Positions 43,068 to 62,356 are shown, counted from the stretch's first letter. The stretch: 64,000 nucleotides of DNA from Alphaproteobacteria bacterium (GCA_965216755.1 CBDCGL010000011.1:2368001-2432000), one strand, 5' to 3'. Notes: generated by a model from the sequence alone, not told the origin. Program-made: numbers and translations.

Positions 43068-43085
43068 ATTTTCTAAAGCGTTATA

Positions 43086-43098
43086 AATCAACGATTTA
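43086..43098 (+). promoter_or_regulatory. IHF-binding consensus next to attL
   Basis: AATCAACGATTTA matches WATCAANNNNTTR. Confidence 0.55.
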
Positions 43099-43127
43099 GA
43101 AACCAGTTTCCTGCCAAAATCCCTCTT

Positions 43128-43153
43128 AGTCTGTGCTCCGAGTCTGTGCTCCG
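43128..43153 (+). repeat. Integrase arm-type site (13-bp tandem)
   Basis: AGTCTGTGCTCCG twice; 23 bp identical to 57444-57466. Confidence 0.8.
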
Positions 43154-43176
43154 AGAGCACTGCACAGAAGGGAGTT

Positions 43177-44691: not shown

Positions 44692-44865
44692 GTCGCCCAA
44701 CCAAGCGGACCTCCGCCCCACCGCCGCCGTGGTCATAGGTTTAATCATGTATTTCAGTTAGTTACGGCGAAAGTTACTCGAAAACACCCCGTAACCCACT
44801 GAAATCAATAGAGAAGCCCTTGACCAGAACGGCGGTCTAAGTCATTGTTTTTATTGATATTTTAC

Positions 44866-44894
44866 TTGACACCTGGCCTGGCTTGTGGTATGGT
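44866..44894 (+). promoter_or_regulatory. Strong sigma70 promoter
   Basis: TTGACA-17 bp-TATGGT with extended -10 TG and an AT-rich upstream tract. Confidence 0.75.
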
Positions 44895-44911
44895 TCGCGT
44901 ATCATTGGAAT

Positions 44912-44986
44912 CCCGATGTAGCTCAGTTGGCAGAGCACTCCCGTTCGGGGGAGAGGCCGGAGGTTCGAAACCTCCCATCGGTATCA
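44912..44986 (+). ncRNA. tRNA-like RNA / pseudo-tRNA with a 6-nt anticodon loop
   Basis: CCCGATG-TA-GCTC AGTTGGCA GAGC-A-CTCCC GTTCGG GGGAG-AGGCC-GGAGG TTCGAAA CCTCC-CATCGGT-A-TCA. Confidence 0.8.
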
Positions 44987-45131
44987 GCCTTCAATTGATG
45001 TAGCCACGGCTGAACGCTGAACAGCGTCACAGATACGGGCTGCGGATGAAGCGCATCTTGCGCCAGATATCTGCGGCCCGTTTTGCATTTGGCCGCCTCC
45101 ATTTCTGGCGCGCAGACATGGAGGAAGAACG

Positions 45132-45590
45132 ATGCAGCATGATCTTTATTCGCCACGCGAGGCAGCAGATTACTGCGGCCTTTCGCTCAGCAAGTTCAAT
45201 CAGCTTCACAGTGCTGGTACCGGGCCGCGCTATAGCAGGCTCGGAACCGAAAAGACCGCGCGTCTTGTATTTCAGCGGAAGGACCTGGATAGGTGGCTGA
45301 ATGGACGCGGCGCGGACACCGTCGCGCGGGCAAAGAGGTACCGGGAGCTGCGGCGGGCCGTTGAACGGGCGACAGCCGAGAGGAAAAAGACGCACGAGGC
45401 CGAAAGCCGTTTTCGTAAGCAGCTTTCAGAAATTATTTCAGGCGCGCCTCACTTCGGAATTGATGACCTTCGTGGCCTTATGACGCGTTCGGGTTACACG
45501 ACCATTCGCGGCATTCCCGCCGATCAGCGCGACAAGTTCCTTACGGCGCTGGTTGACGCAGCCATGTCGGGAGGGTCCGACAATGACTGA
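45132..45590 (+). CDS. AlpA/excisionase-like HTH protein with a C-terminal extension
   Basis: YSPREAADYCGLS..GTGPRYSRLG..FQRKDLDRWL; GGAGG RBS. Confidence 0.8.
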   Translation: MQHDLYSPREAADYCGLSLSKFNQLHSAGTGPRYSRLGTEKTARLVFQRKDLDRWLNGRGADTVARAKRYRELRRAVERATAERKKTHEAESRFRKQLSEIISGAPHFGIDDLRGLMTRSGYTTIRGIPADQRDKFLTALVDAAMSGGSDND

Positions 45591-47628: not shown

Positions 47629-47673
47629 GGGACTGCATTGACCGGATTGGCGACGCATGGGTATAGGTCATAG

Positions 47674-48774
47674 ATGACAACACAAACTGTCCTCACATTG
47701 GACGCTAGGGACCACGTGATGCTCGAAGTCATGCGCGATTATTTCAACGTGCCCCCTGACCGCATGCAGCGAGAAATCCAGGGAATGCTCGCTAAGACCG
47801 TAGCTGTGTTATCTAGTAAAGGAATTAATTACAGCGACTTGAAAACCGCACTCGTGCCCGACCCGAAGAGACGGGAGATCGCACTGGTGTTTGATACGTA
47901 CGATATGAAGGAGTCATGGTATGGGCTTCCGATCCATGCCGCATTGATCCCTCTTTTCAACAAGCAGAGCAATCACAGCATACTTACCGGCGACTACACT
48001 GGTGGCAATGACCAGCAAGATCCGCTCTACGAAGCGTTTGTCGCAGATGTCCAGCTAGTTAGAAATGTTGATTGGCGACACAGCACCCAGTTCTACATCG
48101 TCTACATCAACAACCTGACTGACAAAATGGTCGAGACGTTCCACAACGGTCTGTTGAATTTCGCGCCTTACGTCGGGTTTGCGGATACGACTTTCGCGTC
48201 CCGCTTCAAATTTTATCTCTCAGCAAAGCTCGTCAATTTGTGCATCAAGCATCGGCGAATCATCTTGATGGGCCACGAGGACGATGTGGACAATAATGAA
48301 GACACAAATATGCACGGCTACCCTTGGGAAGATCACGGATATACATGCAGAAGTCTCCAGGGTATGTACTTCGGAGTTCTACTTTCCTATAAAATCGAAC
48401 GACCGGTTTTCGAGGGATTTGAAGTGGACAGCGAGTTCTCGATTAACGCAGTGCACCCCAATCCATTGCCGTTGTCTGATTTCGAGATTCGGATTGATGA
48501 GAGCAAATTCGGCTACCTAACTTCCGAAAAGGCCGGAACTCTAAAGCGAATGGGACTGCTTGACGGCGATCTCTCCGACCTGAAGAAACTCGTGGCCCAA
48601 AAAATATCGTCTAATTACATCTACAACATGACGCACGACGAAAGGCACAACACGACCAAGTTCGATATTATTCTAGAAGTGCATCCGACTGACGGTTCAT
48701 CGCCACTTCGCGTCCTAGTGGCACTTGAGTACATTCCGAAAGATAAGTGCCTTCGTCTAATAACGCTTTATTGA
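47674..48774 (+). CDS. Hypothetical cargo protein with a DUF6883-like C-terminal domain
   Basis: 366-aa ORF, visibly more AT-rich than its flanks; C-terminal IDESKFGYL...KAGTLKRMG...TKFDI...RLITLY pattern. Confidence 0.7.
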   Translation: MTTQTVLTLDARDHVMLEVMRDYFNVPPDRMQREIQGMLAKTVAVLSSKGINYSDLKTALVPDPKRREIALVFDTYDMKESWYGLPIHAALIPLFNKQSNHSILTGDYTGGNDQQDPLYEAFVADVQLVRNVDWRHSTQFYIVYINNLTDKMVETFHNGLLNFAPYVGFADTTFASRFKFYLSAKLVNLCIKHRRIILMGHEDDVDNNEDTNMHGYPWEDHGYTCRSLQGMYFGVLLSYKIERPVFEGFEVDSEFSINAVHPNPLPLSDFEIRIDESKFGYLTSEKAGTLKRMGLLDGDLSDLKKLVAQKISSNYIYNMTHDERHNTTKFDIILEVHPTDGSSPLRVLVALEYIPKDKCLRLITLY

Positions 48775-48829
48775 ATGTGCGGAGTTTACGTGGAGTCGCC
48801 CGCGTCTCATGGCAGCTATTTTTCTTGCT

Positions 48830-48993
48830 TACCAACGGTTGGTAGCCAGCAATTTACCAACGCTACCAACATTGCCATAAGTCATTGATTTCGCTGTTGG
48901 TAAGTTACCAACGAAATCTACCAACCGTGGCGTCCTGGTTGGTTGGTAGGTACCCCCTCCTATAGGGGTACCAACTACCAACGCCATACCAAG
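48830..48993. repeat. Iteron cluster, probable replication origin
   Basis: TACCAAC 7 times forward and 3 times reverse; IHF consensus on the minus strand at 48878-48890; GGTACCCC/GGGGTACC inverted repeat. Confidence 0.8.
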
Positions 48994-49106
48994 GCCAAGG
49001 GATCATCCTGGCCATAAGGATTCTCCGAAGCGGCCTGTGGCCCCGAAATTGGCCCCATGAAATTCGTCCCACGCGCGCGCGTGACTCCCCGTCATCATGA
49101 CCGTGA

Positions 49107-49823
49107 TCATGCTGCTTGAACCTTCACCGTCGCGTCGTCCAACTGAAGCCGTTCCCGTAGCCGCCGAACAGCAGTGGCCGTCCATGCCCCACCCTTCACC
49201 GACGACTCGCCGCGCCGGCTCAAAGTCCGCGCGATCTGACAGTTGCCCATACCCCTGGCCAGCATATCCGAAATCTCCCCCCTCCATGCTTCGGCCCTAG
49301 CATCAGCCGCCCTAGATTTCCCCGCCAGAGCCGCTGTGTTGCCATTGGCCCTGATATGCTCCACCAAGGCCGCTCCGCCGTCCGGGTTGCCCAGGCGTTG
49401 CCCTCTTGCCTTGGCGACCTTCAACGCGGCTTTGGTGCGCTCGCTAATAAGACCAGCCTCAAGCTCTGCCACGGCTGCCATGGACGTGAGTAGAAACTTT
49501 CCCTGCGGTCCCGAAACTTGCGGCAGATCGCAGAACCGAACTTCAACGCCGCTGTCTAGTATGGTCAGAAGAAAATGTGCGCTACGGGCCAACCTGTCGA
49601 GCTTCGCTACCACAAGCGTTGCGCCGGTACGACGACAGTGGTCCAACGCCCTGCCGAGTTCCTGCCGGTCATCACGTTTGCCGCTTTCGGTTTCAGTGTA
49701 GCTTGCAACGATATCAGCATCCGGGCCTAGGTGTTGCTTCACAGCTTCACGTTGCGCAGCCAAACCTAAACCGGACTTGCCTTGTCGGTCGGTTGAAACT
49801 CGATAGTACATGATAGCTTTCAT
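49107..49823 (-). CDS. Serine recombinase (resolvase family)
   Basis: YYRVSTDRQG, ESGK..RQEL, VAKLDRLAR and ISERTKAAL motifs; ATG 49823 after a GGAGA RBS. Confidence 0.92.
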   Translation of the reverse strand: MKAIMYYRVSTDRQGKSGLGLAAQREAVKQHLGPDADIVASYTETESGKRDDRQELGRALDHCRRTGATLVVAKLDRLARSAHFLLTILDSGVEVRFCDLPQVSGPQGKFLLTSMAAVAELEAGLISERTKAALKVAKARGQRLGNPDGGAALVEHIRANGNTAALAGKSRAADARAEAWRGEISDMLARGMGNCQIARTLSRRGESSVKGGAWTATAVRRLRERLQLDDATVKVQAA

Positions 49824-49881
49824 GGTCTGTCTCCTACTTGGATGGAAAGATTTTCTGCGGCTTGGCTGTACGCCGATCACG

Positions 49882-49916
49882 GCAGCTTCGATGTACGCAG
49901 CAGCTTCGATGTACGC
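49882..49916. repeat. 17-bp direct repeat upstream of the resolvase
   Basis: GCAGCTTCGATGTACGC at 49882-49898 and 49900-49916. Confidence 0.85.
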
Positions 49917-50576
49917 CAGCCGAGGCAGTTTGACTGCACGGCCTGAACTTTGCTGCGATGGTTGGCGTTGATGTTCTGGTCATGCCCGGTTCAATTTCGA
50001 GAGTCTTTGTGCGACTGGGCTAGGCGGCTGGCTCAGAGTCCGTTGGCGGCCAAGATCGCGAGCGCACGGCCACAGCAGAATGCCCGCCGGTGAAAAGGCC
50101 TGTGGCGCGTGACGCTGAAGCTGGCGGAAACCTGCGGTTCCATAGCCTTTTCCTTGCGAATACTTGTGTCTGTGTCGTTTTGCAAAACGAGCATTTCGTT
50201 GTCTGACACCACAAAATATAGACGAAAATCATTACCGAGTCGTTAATATCGAAGCATTGAAGAAGAAAAAAATGAGAGAAACCAAAGACTAGCGAAGATC
50301 TCCCCCTAGGTCGATCAAACTCGGAATACAACATCTGGGGCCTGGCATCCCGACATGTCCATGTATTCTCCATTTTTCTTCATTTTTATTCGACCTATCA
50401 GATTTTTTGGGGCCTATTTTACTTGTAGTCCTATGCCCCGGATCATTTTCTACTTGGATCGTTTTGTCATCCAAAATTACAGTTCATTATTTTTGGGGTT
50501 TGCTCCCGAAAAGCATAGATTCACCGCCGCCAAAGTCAAAATTCCAGTTTTGCAGTGCGGTAAACTTGGCGGCGAT

Positions 50577-50604
50577 TTGACAGATATTTGACACGTGATA
50601 CCAT
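50577..50604 (+). promoter_or_regulatory. Candidate sigma70 promoter for the terS-like operon
   Basis: TTGACA-16 bp-TACCAT with TGn; a second TTGACA at 50588. Confidence 0.45.
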
Positions 50605-50729
50605 TAACTTGGCTTCATTACATAAATCTACGCCTAGAAAGCCCTTGGAAGCCCGCACAGAGGCTCTGCCGGTGGCGGCCAAATCCTAGGCCGGGATGCC
50701 GGGCGGGCGCTCACGGGGCTCTGCAGGCC

Positions 50730-51389
50730 ATGGAGACACGAATTTTGGGAAAGCGCGGACCAGCGAAGAACAGTTTGGAAATGCCGATCACCGTGGAGCG
50801 GCGGAAGGTGTTTTTGGACGCCTTGCGGGAGACTGGCGTATGGGCGCACGCCTGCCGCGTGGCGAGCCCGCATTCGCCGTCCGACACTTCAAACCCGCCT
50901 TGTAGCTCCAGCTTCCGGGCCTTGGTTCGTAGGGACATTGAATTTGCCGCTGCCGTCGAAGACGCGATGGAAACAGCAAGGGCAAACGTCTTGCTCGAAA
51001 TTCAGCGCCGTGGGCAGGACGGCTGGGACGAAAAGGTTTTCCAGAAGGGAATGCAGGCCGTTGACGCGGATGGAAATCCAGCCGTCATTCGCAAGTATTC
51101 CGACAACCTCTTGTTGGCCCGTGCGCGTTCGATGATGCCAGAACTGTTCTCGGAAAAGCATCACCACGAACACACGGTAAAGCGTGCAATGGGTGCCCAC
51201 ACGTTCGTCTCCGAAGATATCCATTTGCTCGACCCGGATCAGCGCGCGGCTCTTACCGATATCTTGCTCACGATTCAGCGCCGCCGTGGCGAGGCCGATA
51301 GCGCCCTCGAATATCAGCCAGCGGAAACAATCGACGCCGATTTCGAGGAAGTCGAATACGCAGAATTTGATTTGGGTAGGGAGGATTAA
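50730..51389 (+). CDS. Terminase small subunit-like protein
   Basis: FLDALRETG..HACR..EFAAAVEDA..IQRRGQDG..VFQKG..RKYSDNLL..PELF pattern typical of TerS-like HTH proteins; start uncertain (50730 or 50781). Confidence 0.7.
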   Translation: METRILGKRGPAKNSLEMPITVERRKVFLDALRETGVWAHACRVASPHSPSDTSNPPCSSSFRALVRRDIEFAAAVEDAMETARANVLLEIQRRGQDGWDEKVFQKGMQAVDADGNPAVIRKYSDNLLLARARSMMPELFSEKHHHEHTVKRAMGAHTFVSEDIHLLDPDQRAALTDILLTIQRRRGEADSALEYQPAETIDADFEEVEYAEFDLGRED

Positions 51390-51394
51390 AACAA

Positions 51395-51634
51395 TTGGCT
51401 GACACGATGGATGCGACTGACCTTTTGTTGAGGGATTTGGCACTTAAGGATTCGGGATGGAGCCGGGTCGAAGGTCCGAACGGCTGTGCGTATTTCCCGG
51501 AAACGGCGAATGACGTTGATGCCTTTGACGCGCGCTGCATTGCTATGCACGAAAGCCAGAAGCCAATCGTCTTGGAGGAAAAGCCCGCCGTTACAGATTA
51601 CGCCGATTACATGCGGCTCAAGCGGGGAGATTAA
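51395..51634 (+). CDS. Small hypothetical protein
   Basis: ORF packed between terS-like and the next ORF; its stop overlaps the next ATG. Confidence 0.5.
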   Translation: MADTMDATDLLLRDLALKDSGWSRVEGPNGCAYFPETANDVDAFDARCIAMHESQKPIVLEEKPAVTDYADYMRLKRGD

Positions 51635-52131
51635 TGACGGTGCGCAGGCCAACTACATTGGCCGGTGACGCCGATTCCATTCTCGGCAATCTGCATAACG
51701 CCTCGGACATTGATGACCGGCCTATCACAGCTGAACGCCGGCTGTGGATGTCTGTGATCGCCAGGGCATGGCTGGACGCATTCGAAGCGAGCGATTGGTT
51801 CTTGAGGGCCAGCGAGTCGAAGTTGCGCCACCTCGATTTCGATCCCGCCATGGTCCGCCAGGAAGCGCGTAGGTGGCTGACCCTTGATTTCGGAGAATGG
51901 AAGTCCTACCGCGAAACCGTTTGCGATTTGGCGGGCGTTGACGAGCAGATGTTGCGGAATGCCGCTCGCTGTAGTCTCAATCTGGTGAAGGCGGACCAAC
52001 GGCCCACGGTAGAAATCGTCAATTTGGATACGATGTTCGCGGCGTTGCTGGACCGGGAAGGCGATGGAGAGGACTCCGACGAACTGGACGCGGCATTGGA
52101 GCGGCTGGCCCGTCTTGAGGTAGCAGCATAA
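51634..52131 (+). CDS. Hypothetical phage-type protein
   Basis: ERRLWMSVIARAWLD...EARRWL...VCDLAGVD pattern; GGGGAGA RBS. Confidence 0.7.
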   Translation: MTVRRPTTLAGDADSILGNLHNASDIDDRPITAERRLWMSVIARAWLDAFEASDWFLRASESKLRHLDFDPAMVRQEARRWLTLDFGEWKSYRETVCDLAGVDEQMLRNAARCSLNLVKADQRPTVEIVNLDTMFAALLDREGDGEDSDELDAALERLARLEVAA

Positions 52132-52284
52132 CTCATTGAATTTCGTTATTTTAAAGTGATATAGGTCAGTAATATTGACCAAAAACTTGACAAACTATGT
52201 AGCTGCCCGGAAAATGAAAATTCATCGTCATATTCCTCACAGCCGGGGCGCGGCGAGCGATTCAATGCTCCCGGTTTCTATCTT

Positions 52285-52453
52285 CTAGCGGTGCGATGCC
52301 GCTAGTCGTACTCGACGGCCAATGACGGCGTGATGCCAGAGGCCACCTGCGGCGGGATGCTGCGCCAATCCGACAATTGAAATCTGATCGCTTTGCCCGT
52401 GGTGGGCGGAGCTTTGTCTTGATCGCTGCCCGCGTGAGAGCGGACGGCACAGC
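52285..52453 (+). ncRNA. Structured leader with five hairpins carrying GNGR-type loops
   Basis: Loops GCGAT, GTGAT, GGGAT, GTGGT and GTGAGA, each closed by a GC-rich stem. Confidence 0.5.
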
Positions 52454-52460
52454 ATGAGGA

Positions 52461-53435
52461 ATGCAAAAAATGTCTACAGCTACATCGAAGATTCGTGCCG
52501 GACTCGACGCGCACGAACGCGCAAAGTCTGGCGGAACTTTCAATCTGTCCAATCTTGCTGGCGCACCTGCCAGTGTTTCCGACCTGAACGATCTCGCGAA
52601 CAAGGCGACCGCCAAGAGGGATCGCCTCAAGGTCCTGGCCGAGTCGATCAACGCTGCGGTCGAAAAGTACAAGACGCAGAAGACGGTGGAGTATGCCGAG
52701 CTTGGCCGCATTCGCGACGGCAATCTTGTCACCGATACTTTGGGCGAAACCCGCAGGCGGGCGATGCTCGAACGCGAAGTGGCGAAGTTCACTCGCGATG
52801 CCCGCAAGGTTTCGGCGGACGAACGTTCGCGGCTCTTGTCTGAGCTCCACGATATTACGTCAAAGATTGCCGCTGTCCGCGACTCCTGGTCGGACCCGGT
52901 TGCGGTCCTGATGCGTCGAACGCTCGCAGACGCCAAGCGCGGTGTCTATGCGCAGAACCTTGCATCCGCTGGCCCCGTGGCCGTCGAAGACGCATTGCGT
53001 GACGCGGTGATCGGCAGAAACGCAGCGTTGGCGGCGGCTGCGCTCGATAGGCTGTCGGCCATGTCAAAGGATCAGGCGAAGTCGGTTCGCTTCTCCAAGC
53101 GCGACGTAGCCGAAAGTCTGGTTGCAGAGGAGTGGACCAAGGCGCGCGCTTTAATCGCCATGGTGGACCTTGCGACCGAGGAGTCTGAACTTGCCCAGGC
53201 TCAGGCCGAAGGCAGCCGCGACACGGCCAAGATGCTTATGCGTGTTGGTCGGTTGCGTAACGAACTCAGTGCCCTCGTGCCCGAACCTGCATCCCTGCCG
53301 GATGATGCCAAGCCGAGCAACCCTAAGCCCGGCATCTTGTCGAGTGAGGATTGGGAAAAGAATCTGAACGCTCGCTACCCCGCCCTGCCGGTGCCGAACA
53401 ATGTGCAAGTGATTGGTGGAGGCGGCAATGAGTGA
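52461..53435 (+). CDS. Hypothetical alpha-helical/coiled-coil protein
   Basis: 324-aa Ala/Arg/Glu-rich ORF; no recognised motif. Confidence 0.75.
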   Translation: MQKMSTATSKIRAGLDAHERAKSGGTFNLSNLAGAPASVSDLNDLANKATAKRDRLKVLAESINAAVEKYKTQKTVEYAELGRIRDGNLVTDTLGETRRRAMLEREVAKFTRDARKVSADERSRLLSELHDITSKIAAVRDSWSDPVAVLMRRTLADAKRGVYAQNLASAGPVAVEDALRDAVIGRNAALAAAALDRLSAMSKDQAKSVRFSKRDVAESLVAEEWTKARALIAMVDLATEESELAQAQAEGSRDTAKMLMRVGRLRNELSALVPEPASLPDDAKPSNPKPGILSSEDWEKNLNARYPALPVPNNVQVIGGGGNE

Positions 53436-53658
53436 CCCCGATTTCACCCGTGATGATGTTCGGACTTGGCTCGCCCGTCGCCCCGGCACGTTCGAGCAGG
53501 ACTCGGAGCGGCGGTGCTGGCGCGCGGCGTGGGAGCATTTCAATGACGCCCACTATCCGGTGGGTCACGATGTTGAGTTCATGATGATCGTCGAGGATTT
53601 GGGATTTGGCGTGCGGCCCACAGCCTTGGGCGGATTCATTCTCGACAAGGTGACATGA
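53428..53658 (+). CDS. Small hypothetical protein
   Basis: ATG overlaps the previous stop; GGAGG RBS. Confidence 0.6.
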   Translation: MSDPDFTRDDVRTWLARRPGTFEQDSERRCWRAAWEHFNDAHYPVGHDVEFMMIVEDLGFGVRPTALGGFILDKVT

Positions 53659-54014
53659 GTTCGGCGGTGGGGATCACTAGCTCACTTCGCCGCCATGGGT
53701 GTCCGACTGGCGCTAGCGGTCGGACTCCCTCCAACTCCCCAAGTGGCGATATTGGGCGTGCTGATCGCATGGCCTACAGCGAGAGTGCGCGCAATGCTGC
53801 TGTGGCGAAGGCCGCCGACTAGACGGCTGCGCGGGCCGAACGTTTGGGAACGACTCCCGAGGCGATCCTGGAAGCGATCCAGGACGCGCATGGTTGCCGG
53901 AACAGATTGAGCGCGTGACGAGTCGCTATGTGCTGGAAGGAAGTCCGCCTCCATTGGAGGGCGTTCCGGCTTGGGTTGATAGGGAGATTGAGCGAAACGC
54001 GAGGCGATGGCGGC

Positions 54015-54884
54015 TTAGTAGTCGGGAGTCCAGTTACGTTGAATCTCGCGCAACTTCGCACGGTCAACTTTCCTTAGACCGAGACACAGCGACCAGAGTG
54101 GGAAGGACCAGTCATCTCGTATAGACCGGTTGCCTTTCTCATCATCGATGGCGAGTAGCCCCCTCGACTCCAAAGTTTCGAGAGTCTGCCAGTTCAACCC
54201 CTCCAATTCGTCCTTAGTAGTCTCCAGCTTTACCTCGACTGGTCGCCAGACTTCCGCAACAACAGCCAGTCCCTCATGCGTTGTCATCCCGGCTTGTTGC
54301 ATTGCGATGATCAGGCGAATCGCAGGTGACGTCCAATAGAAGGGCAAACGATCGATGATCGGGTGGTGCCAGTACCTTCCCGCTTCGTCGTTTCCTTCCC
54401 GAACATAGCCAACATAAAGATCGTCTTCTCTCCGCTGTGTGATGCGGTTTGGGAAAATCCAATCCACGTCTACCGGACCGTCAAGGTAATACTGCTCCCG
54501 TGCGTCATCTATGTGCCGCGTGATCTCAGCAAAGTTCGCGGGGCTCAATCCGGTAACGTCGACATAAATGCCCTTCGCTAAATGGCTGTAGAAGTAGCTT
54601 AGTGTCCGTGCTTTTTGCTTTGATTTCGCTGGTGGGCACCGCACGGCGTCAATGAGAATGAGAGCCTTAGCGGCTTCCTCCTCCGCAAGGTTGCCGATGA
54701 TCCTTGCGGCGTGGTGGTCGTCACTCTTACTTAGTTTCTGGGCTGCCGCGTCCAGGCGATTTGCGCACTCGACTATGAGAGACGTACCCTCAGCGACTTC
54801 CTTGAAAAGGTCAGCGTCCTTTAGCTGGCACAAATCCTTAATAGCGCGTTCCATCCGGCGTGATCCCAATGTGTGATTCGCCAC
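54015..54884 (-). CDS. AbiV-family (HEPN) abortive infection protein
   Basis: ANRLDAAAQKL...A...LAEEEAAK...FYSHLAK signature; start may be ATG 54854. Confidence 0.75.
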   Translation of the reverse strand: MANHTLGSRRMERAIKDLCQLKDADLFKEVAEGTSLIVECANRLDAAAQKLSKSDDHHAARIIGNLAEEEAAKALILIDAVRCPPAKSKQKARTLSYFYSHLAKGIYVDVTGLSPANFAEITRHIDDAREQYYLDGPVDVDWIFPNRITQRREDDLYVGYVREGNDEAGRYWHHPIIDRLPFYWTSPAIRLIIAMQQAGMTTHEGLAVVAEVWRPVEVKLETTKDELEGLNWQTLETLESRGLLAIDDEKGNRSIRDDWSFPLWSLCLGLRKVDRAKLREIQRNWTPDY

Positions 54885-55054
54885 GACGGCGTGCGGTCAT
54901 CTCAAGACGCCACGTCGTCAGCCCCTACATCGCAGCGATTTTGACTGGCGTCACCGCTTTGGCCTGAACTGCGTTGGCCGTTGCTTCTATACAGTCCATT
55001 CCAGGGCCCATTTAGGAAACTTGGCCCGTGTGACACTGCGCCGAAGTGATGGTC

Positions 55055-55576
55055 TCAATCTGACCATTGAAACTCCCTCGACTCATCTTCATCGACGAAA
55101 CTGTCTTTATCGAGGTTCTGGGTGTAGATGATGAGGTTTTTGCAGTCGTATCGCGCGGACGGCACAATTAAGCCGTCACAGCCCAGGTAATTTAGCGCAT
55201 CAGAAATCCCTTGGGTGCGCGAATAGTCTCGATTTTGATAGTCTGCTTGGCGTACACCGAGTTTTTCAAGGTCCTCGAAACTAAGTTCGACGACGCGCTT
55301 CAAGCGGACCTTTAGTTTCCAGTTTAGGGCCTTCCTGTCGGGCCGTTGCTCGAACAGCGACCAAAATGTTTCGAACTCTGCGTCAGCCCCTTCGGCCATG
55401 AACGACGTATTGAGGACTTCGAACTCGCTATCCGGACTATTCCAACGACCACGCTTTCCGTTACTACCTTGGAGGGGGCTCTTGTCAGCCCAGACAACTC
55501 GATTGGTGTCTCCCTCAAAGGGTCTTTGGGGGCAACTCTCTAGCTGCTCCAATAAGCCGGGATCGCGCTCCAACAT
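55055..55576 (-). CDS. RES domain toxin
   Basis: R (NRVV), GRWN, E (AEFE) and DGLIVPSAR...NLIIY motifs. Confidence 0.88.
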   Translation of the reverse strand: MLERDPGLLEQLESCPQRPFEGDTNRVVWADKSPLQGSNGKRGRWNSPDSEFEVLNTSFMAEGADAEFETFWSLFEQRPDRKALNWKLKVRLKRVVELSFEDLEKLGVRQADYQNRDYSRTQGISDALNYLGCDGLIVPSARYDCKNLIIYTQNLDKDSFVDEDESREFQWSD

Positions 55577-55594
55577 GTCCCGGTAGACCTAACG

Positions 55595-55972
55595 CTATGT
55601 GTATGTGGGATCAGCCATTGCCTGAATGGCTTCCAAGACCTCCTCAATTCGACCTTCCTGTATTAGATCAGCAGGCCGAAGGCCGTTAAAATACTTGTGC
55701 CTAGAATACAGCCAAGCGCGCGCAGTCTTTGGGTCGGAATAAAACTCTGAGAGTCGCTCCACGATGTACTCTAGATCAACAAGAAGGCTTTCCTTGTTTG
55801 GCCGGGGATAGGCACGACCTTGGTTCCACCGGGAAACAGTCTCAGGCGTGGTCCCGAGCATATTCGCGACATCGACCCCACGAATTGCCGCCCGCCTCTC
55901 TAAAAGTTCCAGTTTTTCCGCGACCACGTTTCTTTCCGTGACCGCATCCCTTTCCGCGACTGCATTTGACAT
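55595..55972 (-). CDS. Xre/MbcA/ParS-type antitoxin (HTH plus toxin-binding domain)
   Basis: DVANMLGTTPETVSRW HTH; ARAWL...FNGLRPADLI C-terminus. Confidence 0.88.
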   Translation of the reverse strand: MSNAVAERDAVTERNVVAEKLELLERRAAIRGVDVANMLGTTPETVSRWNQGRAYPRPNKESLLVDLEYIVERLSEFYSDPKTARAWLYSRHKYFNGLRPADLIQEGRIEEVLEAIQAMADPTYT

Positions 55973-56015
55973 TGTTAGCCTCCGATGGTTCCGCTTTCTA
56001 CAGGTGAGAACTCAA

Positions 56016-57299
56016 TCAACCGCGCGCCGCACGACGCTGAGGTATCTGCGAAAACGAAACTGCGCGGCTTTCTTGTACGAATTTCCCTAAGCCTACTCGA
56101 AGACGCTCCAGAACCTTCCTGTTCTCACTCATTCGCTTGGCCAAGTTTTCCTGAGCTTCGAGCGGCAGAGATTCCGAGAACACTGCCGCATCCGTTGCCG
56201 GACGAAGAGTTTCTTCCATGAAGCGCTGTGCGCGAAGCTGTTCGGGAATGGCACTAAGGCGTCGAATTTCACCCGACCGCTGGATGAGACTATGCCGAAC
56301 CGGGTTGTCCAGCATATCCTTCCAACCTTTTGGACAGCATATCTTTTCCCTACAGCCAAACCGGGATTTCGACCCATGCGCTCCAAAGAATGCTTCTGCC
56401 TCTTCCCTCTTCAGATGAATGTCCAAAGGAGCAATGTGGACCCTCGGAGCCCAAGTGAACCCATGGCTATTGGAGTTAGCGGGACGCGTCCATGAACTTG
56501 CGTTGAAACTCTCTTTTTGGGTGACGCCGTGGGAAATCCCTCCGACCGCGCCGAACGCCAATGCGCTAAGCCCGCGAAGTCCACCCATCATGTCTCCGAC
56601 GAGGGGCACACCAAGTAAATGAAACTCAGCAGCACCATTCACCAGATTTCTGACCGCAGCGTGAGTCACAGTTCCGCTCTGGGAAACTTTGATCCACAGG
56701 GAGTCGATGGGCAGCCCTCTCAACTTTTCGAGAATAATCTGACGTTCATCAACGGTTCGAAACGCTTCATACGACACGGCCAGGGAATAAAAGATCGGCA
56801 CATTCTTGGCACCCGCTCTATCCAGATACAGCCGTAGGTGCCTCGTGGATCGAACGTCAACTTCTAACCATGGGCTATTGGCGCTTTCGATAAAGTGAGT
56901 TGGGGCGAGAACTGCGGTGTAGCGCTGACCCACAACGTACTGAGCAATCGCGTCAGCAATCCGACGGGCACTTATATCATCGAAATCACCCGGCCCTTGC
57001 GGACGATCCAAGGCCCAAGGCAACGCGGACAACCGTTCATTGAAGCCGCCTATCGACCCTAGTTCCTGGGTTCGTGGATCGAGAATTGCGTCTCGGTTTC
57101 GCTCAATCATGAGATGATGCAATTCTGAGTGGCGGTCCTCATGAAGAGGATCGAAAACCACGCCATGTAGGCCAACAGAGCCACTAGCTACCGCGTCCGC
57201 AATTGCTCGATGGTCGATATAGGATGGGCGCACGTACCATCCCAGAGGTTCCGGAGCGGCCCGGACAGCCCGAGGGAACTGTGCTTGTGATGCTGACAT
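56016..57299 (-). CDS. Hypothetical TIM-barrel-like protein (beta-protein/TGT-like) with a Cys/His cluster
   Basis: 427 aa of alternating beta/alpha segments, ILDPRT, GAVGGISHG, and C-terminal GCREKICC...RH. Confidence 0.65.
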   Translation of the reverse strand: MSASQAQFPRAVRAAPEPLGWYVRPSYIDHRAIADAVASGSVGLHGVVFDPLHEDRHSELHHLMIERNRDAILDPRTQELGSIGGFNERLSALPWALDRPQGPGDFDDISARRIADAIAQYVVGQRYTAVLAPTHFIESANSPWLEVDVRSTRHLRLYLDRAGAKNVPIFYSLAVSYEAFRTVDERQIILEKLRGLPIDSLWIKVSQSGTVTHAAVRNLVNGAAEFHLLGVPLVGDMMGGLRGLSALAFGAVGGISHGVTQKESFNASSWTRPANSNSHGFTWAPRVHIAPLDIHLKREEAEAFFGAHGSKSRFGCREKICCPKGWKDMLDNPVRHSLIQRSGEIRRLSAIPEQLRAQRFMEETLRPATDAAVFSESLPLEAQENLAKRMSENRKVLERLRVGLGKFVQESRAVSFSQIPQRRAARG

Positions 57300-57343
57300 C
57301 TACGGTCTCCACGGCATTATGCCATGACATATTGATCGACAGA

Positions 57344-57377
57344 AACATAGACGAAAAGATTGACGTTGTCAATGACA
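57344..57377 (-). promoter_or_regulatory. sigma70 promoter overlapped by palindromic operators
   Basis: Minus-strand TTGACA-17 bp-TATGTT; palindromes TTGAC-GTT-GTCAA (57360-57372) and TGTCA-A-TGACA (57367-57377). Confidence 0.65.
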
Positions 57378-57443
57378 TTCTTGGTGGGGCGTAGAGACCG
57401 GTCACGTCTACGGAATGCGACGCGATAAAGGTAAACAGGGTTG

Positions 57444-57466
57444 AGTCTGTGCTCCGAGTCTGTGCT
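57444..57466 (+). repeat. Integrase arm-type site (right end)
   Basis: AGTCTGTGCTCCGAGTCTGTGCT, identical to 43128-43150. Confidence 0.8.
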
Positions 57467-57530
57467 ACCATTGGTCAAAAAGGCGCAGAAATCAGGGATT
57501 TTAGGCGTTTCAGGGTCCTACCGGGTCCCC

Positions 57531-57547
57531 TCCCCCTGGGGACGCCA
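57531..57547 (+). repeat. attR core (duplicated tRNA-Glu 3' end)
   Basis: TCCCCCTGGGGACGCCA. Confidence 0.93.
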
Positions 57548-57612
57548 GACAATTCAATTAGTTAACACTTCGGCACTCAAATCTTCGGTAATATTTCGGT
57601 ATTATCGGTCGC

Positions 57613-57969
57613 ATGGGCGTGAGAACGACGACGCGTTTGACGGCGTTAGACGCTGCCGCTTCCGACCGACCAATGGCTGCCCTGCCAACCCTCGAACGCG
57701 AACTCCACGGGTGCCTCATCGAATACGAGGCGTTGTCAGAGGCATGGCCGCGCGGCCGGACCGCGATGGAGCGCTATCGGATCGGCAAGAAAGTCGACGC
57801 GGCGTTGAAGCGGATCGCGGAGCTCGAGGCCGCTATCGCCGGCGCCAAAGCCATGACGCTCGAAGATGCCGCGGTCCAGCTGCGCCGGGTACTGGCCAGG
57901 CTGGATGACGCCTCGCTCGAGGCGCTCGTGATGTCGGCGTTGGGGGCGGTTGAGGCGGCTGGCGGGTAG
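57613..57969 (+). CDS. Hypothetical prophage-type helical protein
   Basis: 118-aa ORF with an AIAGAKAMTLEDAAVQLR motif. Confidence 0.6.
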   Translation: MGVRTTTRLTALDAAASDRPMAALPTLERELHGCLIEYEALSEAWPRGRTAMERYRIGKKVDAALKRIAELEAAIAGAKAMTLEDAAVQLRRVLARLDDASLEALVMSALGAVEAAGG

Positions 57970-58021
57970 CGCGCCAGACTGTTGTCCGGTATCTTTCGAC
58001 CTTGAAACCTGGATACGGCGT

Positions 58022-58480
58022 ATGGGCTCACCAGAAAGCGTTTATGATTCACGGGCGGTAGCTAACTATTTGATCAAGCGAGCCGTTGAGCGCGGCATAT
58101 CGGTTGATCCACTAAAACTCATGAAGCTTGTGTACCTCGCTCACAGTTGGACCCTGGGGCTTCTCGAGCGCCCGTTGCTGAGCGACGATATTGAAGCTTG
58201 GCAATACGGCCCCGTCATTAGGCGTTTGTACAGCTGCATTGCAGGAAGTCGGCAAACAATATCGGAGCCTGTCTCCGCGCACCGGGCCCGCCTATCGGAC
58301 CAAGAAGCTCATATTGTTGACCAAGTCCTTGATAAATACGGGCCGCTCAGCGGCGTGCAGCTTTCGGCTTTGACCCATCGCGCTGGCACGCCGTGGGACA
58401 TCACCTGGCGCGCCTATGGAAAAAACGCCGTGATACCGCAAGATTTGATTGAACGGCACTTTAGGTCACTGGCGAACTAG
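58022..58480 (+). CDS. Panacea (DUF4065/SocA) antitoxin-family protein
   Basis: AVANY, LKLMKLVYLAH, IEAWQYGPV and LSALTH..GTPW motifs. Confidence 0.9.
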   Translation: MGSPESVYDSRAVANYLIKRAVERGISVDPLKLMKLVYLAHSWTLGLLERPLLSDDIEAWQYGPVIRRLYSCIAGSRQTISEPVSAHRARLSDQEAHIVDQVLDKYGPLSGVQLSALTHRAGTPWDITWRAYGKNAVIPQDLIERHFRSLAN

Positions 58481-58495
58481 GCTGAGGACACATCC

Positions 58496-58897
58496 GTGGC
58501 CAAGAACCAGGGCCCTGCCAGTTTCGACAATGATAAGCCCCTGGAGGTCCCCGGACCAACTGACATTCCAAAAGGCGGCGATAAGCTGGCAGAACGGGAG
58601 CTCCAGGCCCTCTGGTCGCACGAGCATCTTGTGGCCCCGGAATATTATGCTCGTCAGAAGCGCATCATTCGCGATAGCCAGCTTGAAGATGCTGTGCATT
58701 GGGCAGTGCGCTTATTCGTTAGATTCGTCGCTATGCTGTTGGTCATCGGTATTGGCGTTTGGGCATTTCATATCCTCGGCAAAGATAGCTGGCGTTGGTT
58801 ATCGCCTGAAGACGTCGCGGCCCTGCAGTCTCTGTTGTTCAGCGGAACAATTGGCACGTTGGCGGCGACGATTGGACACAAAGTGTTTCGTCGCTAA
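58496..58897 (+). CDS. Two-TM membrane protein, putative Panacea-paired toxin
   Basis: Two hydrophobic segments; starts 15 bp after the Panacea gene. Confidence 0.65.
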   Translation: MAKNQGPASFDNDKPLEVPGPTDIPKGGDKLAERELQALWSHEHLVAPEYYARQKRIIRDSQLEDAVHWAVRLFVRFVAMLLVIGIGVWAFHILGKDSWRWLSPEDVAALQSLLFSGTIGTLAATIGHKVFRR

Positions 58898-58984
58898 CTG
58901 ATCGCATGCCCCGCCCGGAGTAGGTGCAATTTCGCGACTGGTGCTATCGGCATGTGTGAGCCAAGCATTACGGGTGAGAACGCT

Positions 58985-60406
58985 ATGACGTTTGAGGATC
59001 AGGACAGACCGCGTTTTGTCTGCCATGCCTGCATCGGTGATGCATACTTGAGGGCAGAAATCAAAGCCGAAGGATCACCACGCAAATGTATGGTCTGTGC
59101 AAAGCGCAGGAAGGCGATGGCATTCGACGAGCTGTGCGATCGCGTCCACCTTGTCGTTAGCGAAGAGTTTTGTCCGACCGCGAGCGAGCCCGATAGCTGG
59201 GCCGCATACAGCGAATTTGGGCGGGAACGCGAAGGCGATCCGATTGAGGAAATCCTCTACGAAATTGTGAATTCCAACGAAGAACTAATCCTGGCGCTGA
59301 AGAACCAATTGTCCAATTCACATTTCTCTTTCGACGATGCCGCCGCGGGTGAAGAAGATCCCTATGGCGACGAAGTTCACTACGTTTTACGCGAGCCGAA
59401 CGACTACGAGCTGCTCGATGCGTGGTCAGTATTCCAGGAAGAAATCCGAACCCGAGCGCGATTCTTCAGTCAGAACGCGCAGTCAGTACTTGACGGTATA
59501 TTCAGCGACCTGGATCGCTTCCGCACAGGAGAGCGCGCTTTGATTCGGCATGCTGGCCCGGGCACATCGACAGTGTTCTTCTATAGGGCGCGCCGCGCCT
59601 TCACTGATCATGATATTGCCCGCATCGTCGAGCATCCGGCGCGGGAACTAGGCGCGCCACCATCGCGGTCTGCAGGCAGCGGCCGCATGAATCCGCGCTG
59701 GATTCCGATGTTTTACGGTGCGCTGGATGCCGACACATGTATCGCCGAGGTCCGGGCACCGGTTGGCAGCTCAGTCGTAATCGGCAAATTCAAGATTATT
59801 CGCCCCCTGCAACTGCTCGATCTCGGCGCGCTCCGGGATCTCACCGTGGAACAAACGAGCTTTTTTGATCCAGCGTTCCGCCGTCTGCGGGACAAGGCTC
59901 TCTTTCTCAAGCGGCTCGTCTGGATCATGAGTCGCCCTGTTATGCCGCACGACGAAGACTTTCAGTATCTCCCGACGCAGGCCGCCGCCGAGTATCTCTC
60001 GGAGATGATGGAGCCCAAACTAGACGGCCTGATTTTCCCATCGTCGCAGCGAGGTGGTCCCGGAGAGAACATGGTGCTCTTCCGACGCGCCTCGATTGTT
60101 AAGCCCGATGGCTCCGACGACATGGATCTCCGTACGGATTTCGGATGGACGTCAGAGGACGATGCGGACTTGGATATCATGGTCTTCGCGAAGGAAAAGG
60201 CGAAAGAACCTACAAAAGTGGAACGGAAAGGGGTGTTTGTTTTTGACGATGACTGGACGGATCTCCCACCTAAGCCGGACGAATCGCCCGCCCTTCGGAT
60301 CGATCTCGATGCCATCCAGGTCTTGGAAATCCTAGCGGTCGAGTACCGCACTTGTCCTCGCCGCGTTCGCCGGGTCTCCGAACCAGCTGACGATTTACCT
60401 TTCTAG
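58985..60406 (+). CDS. RES domain protein with a Cys-rich N-terminal domain (HEPN_RES_NTD1-like)
   Basis: CHACIGD and CMVC; FYRAR, LGAPP..GRMN, IAEVR, YLPTQ and GLIFPSS motifs; start 58952 or 58985. Confidence 0.85.
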   Translation: MTFEDQDRPRFVCHACIGDAYLRAEIKAEGSPRKCMVCAKRRKAMAFDELCDRVHLVVSEEFCPTASEPDSWAAYSEFGREREGDPIEEILYEIVNSNEELILALKNQLSNSHFSFDDAAAGEEDPYGDEVHYVLREPNDYELLDAWSVFQEEIRTRARFFSQNAQSVLDGIFSDLDRFRTGERALIRHAGPGTSTVFFYRARRAFTDHDIARIVEHPARELGAPPSRSAGSGRMNPRWIPMFYGALDADTCIAEVRAPVGSSVVIGKFKIIRPLQLLDLGALRDLTVEQTSFFDPAFRRLRDKALFLKRLVWIMSRPVMPHDEDFQYLPTQAAAEYLSEMMEPKLDGLIFPSSQRGGPGENMVLFRRASIVKPDGSDDMDLRTDFGWTSEDDADLDIMVFAKEKAKEPTKVERKGVFVFDDDWTDLPPKPDESPALRIDLDAIQVLEILAVEYRTCPRRVRRVSEPADDLPF

Positions 60407-60925: not shown

Positions 60926-61428
60926 GACCCGTCTCCCCAAGAGCGTTCGCGCAGGAACTGACCCAAATCCGGCGTCAGCGGCCGCGCGGCACCAAGCACC
61001 GCACGTGGCTTGAGATCCCTGAACGCGGACAGCGAGGCCGTATGAAAGCCGCGCTCGCCGCCGTCGAGGGTCATCGTTACCCGGTCACCCATGTGGTTCA
61101 CGCGATAAAGGCCAGGCGCGCGGCTATCCAGCTGAACACAGTACACACCGTCGCCCTGCCACCTGCCAGGTTCGCCGAGGAACGCGATCGTGTCGTGGCC
61201 GAGCGTCAGCACCGTGTTGCGGTCAGCAATCAGGAACGCGGCGACAAAGGCCGTGTTGGCCGTCGCGGGTATATGGCCGGCGAGCAAGACACTGTTGCGA
61301 TACAGGACGATCGGATGGGTGGTGAGCGCGACGACGTTATTGTCGATTTCAATCCAGCCGTCATCAAGGAGCGGCTGTAGGCCATACCAGTGTTTGGCGA
61401 TGGAGCCAAGCGCCTCACCAAGCCGGGA
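60922..61428 (-). pseudogene. Hypothetical ORF, possibly 5'-truncated
   Basis: Frame is open from 61428 but has no conventional start until TTG 61287. Confidence 0.35.
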
Positions 61429-61555
61429 TCACGGCAAGATGTGGGCGCGTCCTGGCGACTATCAACGCGCGATCGAGAGAGGCCGCGGCGAAACGATAAC
61501 TGCGCGCGGTCGGCAGGAAGGTTGGCGTACCACTCAAAATTCACCGACACAACGA

Positions 61556-62356
61556 TTACATCGGTCTCCATTCTTTTGCCAATTTCACTGCCTTAGCAAT
61601 TTGTTCTGCACTCATTATTTCGGCGACGAATTCGCGGCCTTTGATCGCGTCTTGGTCTCCTTGGCTAACCGCAAGGTTGAACCACATATGGGCTCGAACG
61701 TAATCCTGCGACACACCCCTGCCGTCGGCGTACATGATAGCGAGGTTGGCCTGGGCGCGATCGTGGCCTTGTTCGGCGGCCTTTCGGTACCACGCCGCTG
61801 CTGTGGTATCGTCCTGCGGAACGCCCCAGCCCTTGGCGAACATTATGGCAATGTTGTACTGGGCGCGGTCGTTACCCTGCGCGGCGGCCTTTCGGTACCA
61901 GGTGGCCGCCTCGGCATAGTCCTGTGGCACGCCCAGGCCTTCGAAGTAGATGACGCCGAGGTTGTACTGCGCCAGTGCGTTGCCCTGCTGGGCCGCCCTG
62001 CGGTACCACTTGACCGCCTCCACATAGTCCTGCGGCATGCCCAGGCTGACGGCGTGCATGACGCCGTAGTTATATTGGGCAAGAGCGTTGCCCTGCTCGG
62101 CAGCCATACGATACCACTTCGCGGCCTTGGCGTAATCCCGCACGACGCCCCGGCCATTGGCGTACAAAACACCGATGTTGGCCTGGGCACGGGCATCGCC
62201 CCGGTCGGCAAGCGGGCGCCAAACCCGGAAGGCGGTTGCGTCATCGCCTTTATTGTAGGCGGCAAGCCCCTCCTCGAAGGTCCCCGCGGCCACCGGCGCG
62301 GCAAACGCCCACAATAGAACAAGGGCGATAAATGCGACCTGGATGACATTTTTCAT
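61556..62356 (-). CDS. Secreted Sel1-like repeat (TPR) protein
   Basis: Signal peptide; repeated AQYNLG.MY..G.GV.QDY..A..WYRKAA.QG. Confidence 0.93.
   Translation of the reverse strand: MKNVIQVAFIALVLLWAFAAPVAAGTFEEGLAAYNKGDDATAFRVWRPLADRGDARAQANIGVLYANGRGVVRDYAKAAKWYRMAAEQGNALAQYNYGVMHAVSLGMPQDYVEAVKWYRRAAQQGNALAQYNLGVIYFEGLGVPQDYAEAATWYRKAAAQGNDRAQYNIAIMFAKGWGVPQDDTTAAAWYRKAAEQGHDRAQANLAIMYADGRGVSQDYVRAHMWFNLAVSQGDQDAIKGREFVAEIMSAEQIAKAVKLAKEWRPM

Follow-up and report, generated by a model that had tools for sequence, protein, structure and literature searches.

An orphan (beta/alpha)8-barrel protein and an MbcTA-like RES-Xre pair encoded together in a conserved three-gene unit

We analysed a stretch of 64,000 nucleotides from an Alphaproteobacteria bacterium (GCA_965216755.1 CBDCGL010000011.1:2368001-2432000), hereafter the window, in which three consecutive minus-strand genes encode a 427-residue protein, here called X427, an Xre/MbcA/ParS-type antitoxin and a RES-domain toxin. 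The three genes recur together, in the same order, in distant bacteria, and we hold it as practically certain that this triad is a real, conserved tripartite unit. As an explanation of the whole we favour, at a probability of about 0.45, a mobile operon made of a RES-Xre core and of X427 as an accessory enzyme that would act when the operon is derepressed.

Linkage of the three genes and loss of the first

In the window, the three open reading frames (ORFs) have the same orientation and are separated by 43 nt (X427-Xre) and 18 nt (Xre-RES); the tight packing described in the initial annotation of this DNA is thus confirmed by the ORF list and the sequence (coordinates in Table 1). Other genomes were examined by a pattern and tblastn scan, with one genome kept per species, which gave 64 loci (L numbers) with an X427 relative. 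As 10 of them end less than 1,100 nt past the match, 54 were informative. In 51 of these 54 loci, Xre and then RES lie directly downstream of X427 on the same strand. L021 keeps an intact X427 and Xre with a RES reduced to a stump of ~57 residues, L054 is a decayed triad whose three genes are all frameshifted or degenerate, and the 53-residue match of L063, at 6e-7, is regarded as spurious. Across the genome loci the X427-Xre gap is mostly 3-55 nt, with several 4-nt ATGA overlaps, and the Xre-RES gap mostly 10-21 nt.

Plasmids, whose annotations are those of the depositor or of PGAP, provided an independent check of this linkage. Twelve PLSDB records carry an X427 relative, at 25-34% identity, and ten of them are annotated with a hypothetical protein, an Xre/MbcA/ParS protein of ~112 aa (or a DUF2384 or unnamed protein) and a RES family NAD+ phosphorylase. 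The remaining two are a record cut at the origin right after the antitoxin and a record without a gene table. The X427-Xre gap is 3-6 nt in most plasmid loci. X427 is therefore, as had been proposed, the first cistron of a conserved three-gene unit; its family does co-occur with RES and Xre elsewhere, and with a third gene linked in 51/54 genome loci and 10/12 plasmid records the pair is here not a strict two-gene module.

No other neighbour family recurs among the loci, the biggest cluster being five near-identical Burkholderiales loci, and no fourth conserved gene was found in the flanks. The hosts belong to Pseudomonadota, Actinomycetota, Chloroflexota, Verrucomicrobiota and Acidobacteriota. 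Some contigs of metagenome-assembled genomes (MAGs) labelled Bacteroidota carry triad sequences identical to Burkholderiales ones: L020, L022, L023, L024 and L027, labelled Chitinophagaceae (Bacteroidota) and several Burkholderiales genera, have an identical Xre and near-identical triads. Either recent horizontal transfer or a wrong binning of MAG contigs would explain it.

The dependence between X427 and the pair runs one way. Xre and X427 profiles were run against 401 genomes (G numbers) sampled evenly from the class of the window; the first matched 16 genomes and the second five, each time adjoining an Xre match. X427 is intact in the window genome and in G155, split over three frames in G018, reduced to a 50-residue remnant in G075 and cut by the contig end in G335. 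Xre-RES dyads with no X427 in the ~1.5 kb upstream are found at L087, L090, L095 and L101, while L086 and L092 have an Xre with neither a RES match nor X427, and X427 remnants stand beside the pair in L094 (residues 1-59 only), L096, L097 and G018. The sets of loci were chosen differently, by X427 or by Xre, and such proportions are not frequencies.

In a maximum-likelihood tree of Xre (69 sequences, 115 columns, many unresolved forks), the dyads and remnants nest among the triads, and, given the well-supported branches, the state "intact X427" has to change at least 8 times. We read this as X427 being ancestral to this MbcTA-like subclade, lost repeatedly and never kept without the pair. Since it was lost repeatedly with the pair kept, X427 is not required to neutralise RES; it is probably an accessory depending on the toxin-antitoxin (TA) pair, and not an antitoxin.

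X427 pseudogenes were located in close relatives of the window copy, mostly marine MAGs, at 5001-6281 in L003, 5001-6281 in L004 and 1727-3009 in L005. Xre is kept in all three; RES is kept in L003, broken in L004 and past the contig end in L005.

The RES-Xre pair and the upstream region

The identities given to the second and third genes, an Xre-MbcA antitoxin and a RES toxin, hold. Xre scores 26.2 bits against PF09722 (cut-off 24.5) and matches NF049845 at 1.1e-7, under the curated cut-off, and RES scores 49.5 bits against PF08808 (cut-off 23.2). Family profiles built from 29 triad-linked homologues each were run against the PDB: that of Xre found Mycobacterium tuberculosis MbcA (6fkg_C) at 5e-26 over its full length (profile residues 3-113), and that of RES found M. 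tuberculosis MbcT (6fkg_A) at 1.4e-15. As MbcA and MbcT are the nearest solved structures, the pair is an MbcTA-like RES-Xre module. The features of an antitoxin are present: an Xre-type helix-turn-helix (HTH), an MbcA/ParS C-terminal toxin-binding domain and a gene just upstream of that of the toxin. A complex prediction with X427, Xre and RES each given as an alignment returned scores of 0.00 and 0.00, which is no answer and bears neither way.

MbcT is an NAD+ phosphorylase that yields ADP-ribose-1''-phosphate; its residues R27, R47 and Y58 are essential, E69 contributes, S126 is dispensable and a Tyr58-to-Ala mutant is non-toxic (PMC6436930). By profile alignment, R27, R47, Y58, E69 and S126 map to R26, R44, Y56, E67 and S140 of the RES family. 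The MbcT-essential set is complete in the wider triad family and incomplete in the window RES, where R26, R44 and E67 are present and Asn56 stands at the Tyr58 position. The same Asn is found in the RES of L001, L003, L007 and L059. For the 44 RES ORFs of related loci with the pattern, the script printed 38 Tyr, 4 Asn and 1 Glu (=43), a tally given as printed, whose firm part is the clade assignments; the "Glu" of L049 is a pattern artefact, the sequence ALYLS giving Tyr by eye. By homology to MbcT, the RES of the triad would consume NAD+, by a chemistry that may differ from that of MbcT in the window clade.

The Asn56 of the window clade, together with the frequent X427 pseudogenes there, would also suit an account in which the genes of the window copy are not functionally coupled. 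The module would then be decaying or domesticated, its RES weakened and X427 carried along, and X427 would generally be a passenger that shares a promoter. Precedent exists in GndRX, a non-canonical and non-toxic RES-Xre pair (PMC12457610). However, the three genes of the window are intact, and the ratio of nonsynonymous to synonymous substitution rates (dN/dS) between the window and L001 is 0.12 for X427 and 0.04 for Xre; the window genes are under purifying selection against L001, yet the clade may be drifting. Moreover, linkage held from Pseudomonadota to Actinomycetota, Chloroflexota and Verrucomicrobiota at 25-45% identity is hard to reconcile with a passenger, and we regard this account as very unlikely.

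The single promoter overlapped by palindromes that the initial annotation had placed ahead of X427 stands as a promoter-like site. The site and the repeats are real, and the -35 box, the -10 region, the half-sites and a GGAG ribosome site are kept in 9/9 window-clade loci with unrelated flanks; the match to the promoter consensus alone is not above chance (2 sites vs 1.7 +/- 1.5 in shuffles). It is this conservation in unrelated flanks that makes the promoter credible despite its chance-level score. On the minus strand of 54800-57700, a scan found TTGACA-17-TATGTT as the sole promoter-like site, with neither a promoter-like site, including before xre, nor a terminator-like site between the three genes. 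The flanking stretch of GTCA/TGAC half-sites, ATGTCATTGACAACGTCAA (57378..57360), holds TTGAC-AAC-GTCAA and GTCA-T-TGAC, inverted repeats that overlap each other. In the window clade the conserved upstream block reads (A/G)(C/T)GTCA-TTGACAAC-GTCAA; the clade also shares a TCTA(T/G) -10 region at a fixed distance, a further GTCA(T)G and the ribosome site, and the upstream similarity between the window and the eight other loci ends ~85 nt before the X427 start codon. Other clades and phyla have runs of ATGTCAAT / GTCTATAAT-type repeats at the same position upstream of X427.

Promoter and repeats stand ahead of X427 rather than ahead of xre. A palindromic promoter operator is the mode of autoregulation of the Pseudomonas putida Xre-RES complex (PMC12204516), and by analogy the GTCA/TGAC repeats are a predicted Xre operator. 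Internally deleted copies of X427 keep the promoter-proximal N-terminal piece (residues 10-186 in L056, 1-90 in L059, 10-75 in L062 and 1-59 in L094), L096 and L097 being exceptions, and this retention fits an expression of xre-res that depends on the upstream promoter.

The barrel protein and its possible role

X427 has no match in Pfam, NCBIfam, PADLOC or PHROGs, and 36 members searched against Pfam at E <= 10 gave nothing useful. Its 334 word-sharing homologues in 90% clusters are all unnamed or "hypothetical", and a search of 1.84 billion 50% clusters matched 655 representatives at E <= 1e-3, 231 of them at E <= 1e-30. The ESM Atlas gave unnamed clusters only, with no usable named match. 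The best PDB hit of its sequence profile is a xylose-isomerase-like barrel at E 0.16. A search of 50,697 phage records brought up no homologue and, as weak evidence, no fused or longer form was seen among proteins of 749-2135 aa.

The beta/alpha pattern noticed at first proved to be a true (beta/alpha)8, or TIM, barrel. The AlphaFold2 model, made from a 36-sequence alignment, has a mean predicted local distance difference test (pLDDT) of 90.7 and a predicted template-modelling score (pTM) of 0.89; eight strand-helix units, which reach about residue 260, are followed by a beta-hairpin and five helices. Whole-chain Foldseek against the PDB gave at least 500 matches at E <= 1e-3, and among the matches listed all are TIM-type barrels; the best, at ~1e-5, include glycosidases of glycoside hydrolase families GH18, GH10 and GH26, pyruvate kinase, class II aldolases, dehydroquinase and the tRNA-guanine transglycosylase (TGT) of Zymomonas mobilis. 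Conserved residues sit at the C-terminal ends of the strands, namely R24, D74, H135, D236 (D/E in distant members) and E263 (E/D); H257 is at a strand end too, but is not conserved in distant members. Further conserved residues are D105, W95, D148, R156, W202 and R356. In the model D74, H135, D148, D/E236 and E/D263 line the barrel mouth and are candidate catalytic residues. A class-I aldolase, with its Lys on strand 6, was rejected as K204 is not conserved.

The C-terminal part is the basic one: the median isoelectric point (pI) is 9.5 for 211 full-length members and 10.3 for their C-terminal 125 aa, and the barrel part of the window protein has a pI of 6.7. The C-terminal cysteine cluster that had been pointed out exists, as C316-x4-C321-C322-x13-H336. 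In 36 sequences C316, C321 and H336 do not vary and C322 has a conservation of at least 90%; 35 C-terminal fragments keep all four without exception. Zinc at this Cys3-His site probably stabilises the domain. Folded alone, the C-terminal 145 residues reach a pLDDT of 91.3, and against the PDB this domain has 0 neighbours at E <= 0.001, the best of 49 weak matches being at E 3.5.

The likeness to TGT or DpdA suggested by the initial annotation did not survive these comparisons. Read in this way, X427 would be a transglycosylase able to swap or take out a base in tRNA or DNA, or would undo a modification made by RES. The resemblance is visible in the order of parts, in which the (beta/alpha)8 barrel comes before a Cys/His cluster and helices, as in TGT; D74 and D236 may echo TGT motifs. 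The best whole-chain superposition in the PDB, and the only one that spans ~400-465 alignment columns, is with Z. mobilis TGT, at template-modelling (TM) scores of 0.43-0.45 on the query and 0.47-0.51 on the target and a root-mean-square deviation of 9-13 A. In the BFVD, X427 has 8 matches at E <= 1e-3, and further down, among the weak matches, are phage "queuine tRNA-ribosyltransferase" models, with target TM scores up to 0.57. On the other side, PF01702 was found in 0/36 members at E <= 10, and an hhalign comparison of the 211-sequence X427 alignment with a TGT alignment gave a probability of 0.39% (E 0.15, 36 columns), this TGT profile being a shallow one of 20 sequences extracted from related genomes, mostly alphaproteobacterial. 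There is no TGT among the 49 weak matches of the C-terminal domain, which is thus not recognised as a TGT zinc subdomain. The Foldseek E of ~1e-5 is shared by glycosidases, pyruvate kinase and aldolases, the barrel is a feature common to many superfamilies, and the cysteine cluster, whose C-x4-CC-x13-H spacing differs from that of TGT, is dispensable in L111/L112. In the model, then, X427 resembles TGT in fold class only, and a TGT/DpdA-like activity appears highly improbable. Neither a homocysteine-methyltransferase-type Cys/Cys-Cys zinc site nor type II phosphoribosyltransferase barrels appear among the Foldseek matches listed. Since the TGT tests were negative and the ESM Atlas gave unnamed clusters only, we regard X427 as a TIM-barrel family of its own, whose C-terminal domain is likewise new.

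The reading that we favour, a RES-Xre core with X427 as an enzyme acting on derepression, would work as follows. The MbcA/MbcT-type pair would be the core of neutralisation and regulation: Xre would plug the RES active site, and Xre with RES would repress the single promoter via the GTCA/TGAC repeats. X427 would be a co-regulated accessory enzyme whose usefulness or tolerability depends on this core; its basic helical C-terminal domain would suit the binding of nucleic acid or phosphorylated ligands. Loss of the antitoxin, through phage infection, loss of the element or stress, would free RES, and NAD+ would be consumed by phosphorolysis; the operon would be derepressed, and X427 would rise at that point as a second catalytic activity, directed at a nucleic-acid or nucleotide substrate. 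Such a substrate is suggested by a linkage that runs one way, a promoter and operator in common, a barrel mouth that looks catalytic and a C-terminal domain that is very basic, and we put forward X427 as a nucleic-acid-directed second effector only tentatively.

Several points weigh against this reading. The co-transcription of X427, xre and res is itself a prediction from the sequence. Counted on either strand in 62 loci, the TGTCNA motif has a density of 1.24 per 130 nt ahead of X427, compared with 0.21 for 3,920 background windows taken from the same loci, an enrichment that is supportive at most because the motif was picked after inspecting the sequences. The 64 loci were selected by X427 and cannot measure how often the pair lacks it. 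In the window clade, X427 is broken by one in-frame stop in L003, two stops in L004, a frameshift in L005 and a large deletion in L059, and the ORF calls of L006 and L007, not inspected by eye, also look broken, so that selection on X427 is weak there. The RES of the window may be weak, altered or inactive, since Asn replaces a Tyr whose Ala mutant in MbcT is non-toxic. The tie between X427 and nucleic acid lies in charge and general architecture, and library, profile and structure searches detected no related nuclease, glycosylase or transferase family. Finally, the cysteine cluster is absent in the divergent Roseivivax/Celeribacter plasmid subgroup, L111/L112, an absence more in keeping with a structural metal site than with a catalytic one.

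The invariant arginines R24, R156, R186, R341, R356 and R366, which could bind phosphates, leave room for another kind of enzyme, one of small molecules in the NAD+/ADP-ribose network. X427 would then process the RES product (ADP-ribose-1''-phosphate, nicotinamide) or a salvage intermediate, and would limit self-damage and allow recovery, or else block the rebuilding of NAD+ by a phage. TIM barrels commonly handle sugar phosphates. X427 is found only beside a RES NAD+ phosphorylase homologue, as expected of an enzyme whose substrate needs the action of RES, and the product of that action is known from MbcT (PMC6436930). Against this, a helical domain of 125 residues with a pI of ~10.3 exceeds what a small ligand needs, and the searches found no similarity of X427 to NAD- or ADP-ribose-processing families. 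We consider it unlikely.

X427 might found a new nucleic-acid-directed TIM-barrel family working in tandem with an MbcT-like NAD+ phosphorylase, a speculation to which we give small odds. One possibility is that X427 makes or processes the phosphate ends or ADP-ribose adducts that RES would make from NAD+ on RNA or DNA; RES and KptA/Tpt1 have phosphate-attack chemistry in common (PMC9503650). If true, the triad would combine two enzymes under the gating of Xre in an abortive-infection or addiction system of a so far undescribed kind, carried by plasmids and satellites over at least five phyla.

Carrier element, neighbourhood and known systems

The initial annotation had put the triad in the cargo slot of a satellite, and the tRNA-derived repeats, integrase, primase-helicase and small-terminase-like (TerS) gene around it agree with this. 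A 14.5-kb element (43051-57547) is integrated at a tRNA-Glu gene (42992-43067), with a GC content of 0.53-0.57 inside against ~0.61 outside (Table 1). An AbiV-like gene and the triad fill its right end, the triad promoter being 72 nt from the arm repeat. It has the features of a phage-inducible chromosomal island (PICI), i.e. an integrase at a tRNA, repeats, an AlpA-like regulator, a primase-helicase and a TerS-like gene, and no capsid or tail gene was found among the ORFs scanned. From its sequence, it is a candidate PICI-like satellite or a small integrative element. ARAGORN reports an odd tRNA-like sequence with a two-base anticodon at 44911-44985.

Table 1 Features of the triad, its upstream region and the carrier element in the window
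Feature	Position	Strand	Details
X427	56016..57299	-	427 aa; orphan (beta/alpha)8-barrel protein with a basic helical C-terminal domain; first cistron
Xre/MbcA/ParS-type antitoxin, probable autorepressor	55595..55972	-	125 aa; PF09722 7.8e-6
RES-domain toxin, MbcT-like	55055..55576	-	173 aa; PF08808 6.1e-13
Promoter-like site TTGACA-17-TATGTT	57344..57372	-	-35 57372..57367, -10 57349..57344; 10/12 consensus positions
Operator-like overlapping inverted repeats ATGTCA-TTGACA-ACGTCAA (GTCA/TGAC half-sites)	57360..57378	-	cover the -35 box
Extra GTCA copy	near 57326-57331		read from the sequence
attR, 17-nt copy of the tRNA-Glu 3' end	57531..57547	+	exact repeat; attL copy 43051-43067
23-nt arm repeat	57444-57466; other copy 43128-43150		exact; just inside both ends
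Tyrosine integrase	43177-44691		element ORF
HTH_17 protein (AlpA-like)	45132-45590		element ORF
Prim-Pol/AAA_25 primase-helicase	45553-47628		element ORF
Serine resolvase	49107-49880	-	element ORF
Small-terminase-like (TerS) protein	50595-51389		phrog_4044 at 2.3e-23
AbiV-like HEPN protein	54015-54884	-	TIGR04498 1.8e-6 (above cut-off), PF18728 2e-5; 170 nt downstream of RES

No AbiV-like neighbour stands beside the triad in the 64 other loci. Just beyond attR, at 57950-58897 (+), the gene of a 176-aa SocA/Panacea antitoxin (PF13274 2.3e-19; NF047745 3.1e-26, under cut-off) is followed after 15 nt by that of a 133-aa protein without family match, the two forming a candidate Panacea-type TA pair. 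A 484-aa protein at 58952-60406 (+), with HEPN_RES_NTD1 (4.8e-6) and RES (2.2e-17) matches, is a second RES protein, encoded by a single gene, less than 2 kb from the triad. The SocA/Panacea pair and the HEPN-RES gene may belong to an older neighbouring island. Farther on, a 375-aa ORF without Pfam match (61190-62317) holds five tandem 108-nt repeats (61704-62243), 60-100% identical to the first copy, and thus encodes a protein of 36-residue repeats.

The flanks of the triad elsewhere were scanned on the first 145 of 221 selected ORFs, from 21 loci. The 25 most often matched of the 106 Pfam families comprise 3 integrases, an IS21 helper, a DNA methylase, SLOG and Hypoth_Ymh, the others being mostly metabolic enzymes. 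Up to 10 of the 145 ORFs match PADLOC at E <= 1e-10, each a different system (SduA, PD-T7-1, PD-T7-5, PD-Lambda-3, ThsB, SspF, PifA, DrmD, PDC-M50B and methyltransferases). On plasmids the neighbours are RepC, ParB and recombinases or integrases, with QatA once and a restriction enzyme once. In two conjugative Roseobacteraceae plasmids (L112 2662-7164 and L120 1462-4764) a small WGR-domain gene precedes the triad by ~70 nt in the same orientation, and the X427 of this subgroup has no cysteine cluster. In L112 the gene of QatA, a component of the Qat anti-phage system, overlaps the RES gene at its end. A recurrence in defence islands had been proposed as a check: the triad does recur, in surroundings that are mixed, mostly plasmid-backbone or housekeeping genes. 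Because of these mixed surroundings we take it to behave as a mobile TA cassette, sometimes but not regularly in defence islands. In PADLOC-DB 2.0.0 itself, X427 and RES match 0 families and Xre has weak HTH-type matches only (RmrA 2.3e-4).

The defence neighbours (AbiV in the window, QatA and a restriction endonuclease on plasmids, and the flanking PADLOC matches) raise the question whether X427 could be a sensor or trigger, which would recognise a phage or stress cue, or modify or remove Xre, and so release RES for an inducible abortive infection. Such a role would be in line with its one-way dependence and with a repeated loss that leaves a viable pair. It seems quite unlikely to us in view of the strongly conserved barrel-mouth residues, which indicate catalysis and not mere recognition, of the majority of neighbourhoods that are not defence islands, and of the phage records, in which X427 has no homologue.

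Among known systems, the core of the triad is closest to MbcTA (Rv1989c/Rv1990c) and the other RES-Xre pairs (P. putida Xre-RES, ParST, NatRT). The antitoxin gene likewise comes first, with a gap of ~15 nt, Xre aligns over its full length with MbcA and RES with MbcT, the equivalents of MbcT R27, R47 and E69 are conserved, and palindromic promoter repeats are found in P. putida as well (PMC12204516). In contrast, a larger third gene is here placed ahead of xre, with repeats and promoter upstream of it, and the window RES has Asn for the essential Tyr58 of MbcT. Owing to this Tyr-to-Asn change, the window copy is possibly a poor choice for functional work.

With two-enzyme NAD+-centred anti-phage systems and satellite defence cargo, the triad has in common a predicted NAD+-consuming effector on a mobile element that carries an integrase, an AlpA-like HTH protein, a primase-helicase and a TerS-like gene, with AbiV-like, SocA/Panacea and HEPN-RES genes within 5 kb. 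It differs from them in having no PADLOC models and in standing elsewhere mostly among housekeeping or plasmid-backbone genes. Full-text searches of main articles outside subscription journals found no account of a RES-Xre module with three genes or of the X427 family; the triad is apparently an undescribed tripartite RES-Xre variant built on a new enzyme family.

In the tripartite TA systems TAC (HigB-HigA and a SecB-like chaperone) and HipBST there are also three co-oriented genes, with a third part added to a classical pair (PMC9098466). Here this part is a 427-aa TIM barrel with enzyme-like residues, and not a SecB-like chaperone or a split toxin, and its repeated loss with the pair kept means that it is not needed for neutralisation; this loss shows how tripartite modules decay to plain TA pairs. 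RES-Xre pairs have been treated as self-contained two-gene modules that deplete NAD+. A sizeable and dispersed MbcTA-like subclade adds to them a conserved upstream enzyme that defines a new protein family, for which there are a confident model and a few residues that may be catalytic, and raises the question of what a second catalytic activity adds to an NAD+ phosphorylase toxin.

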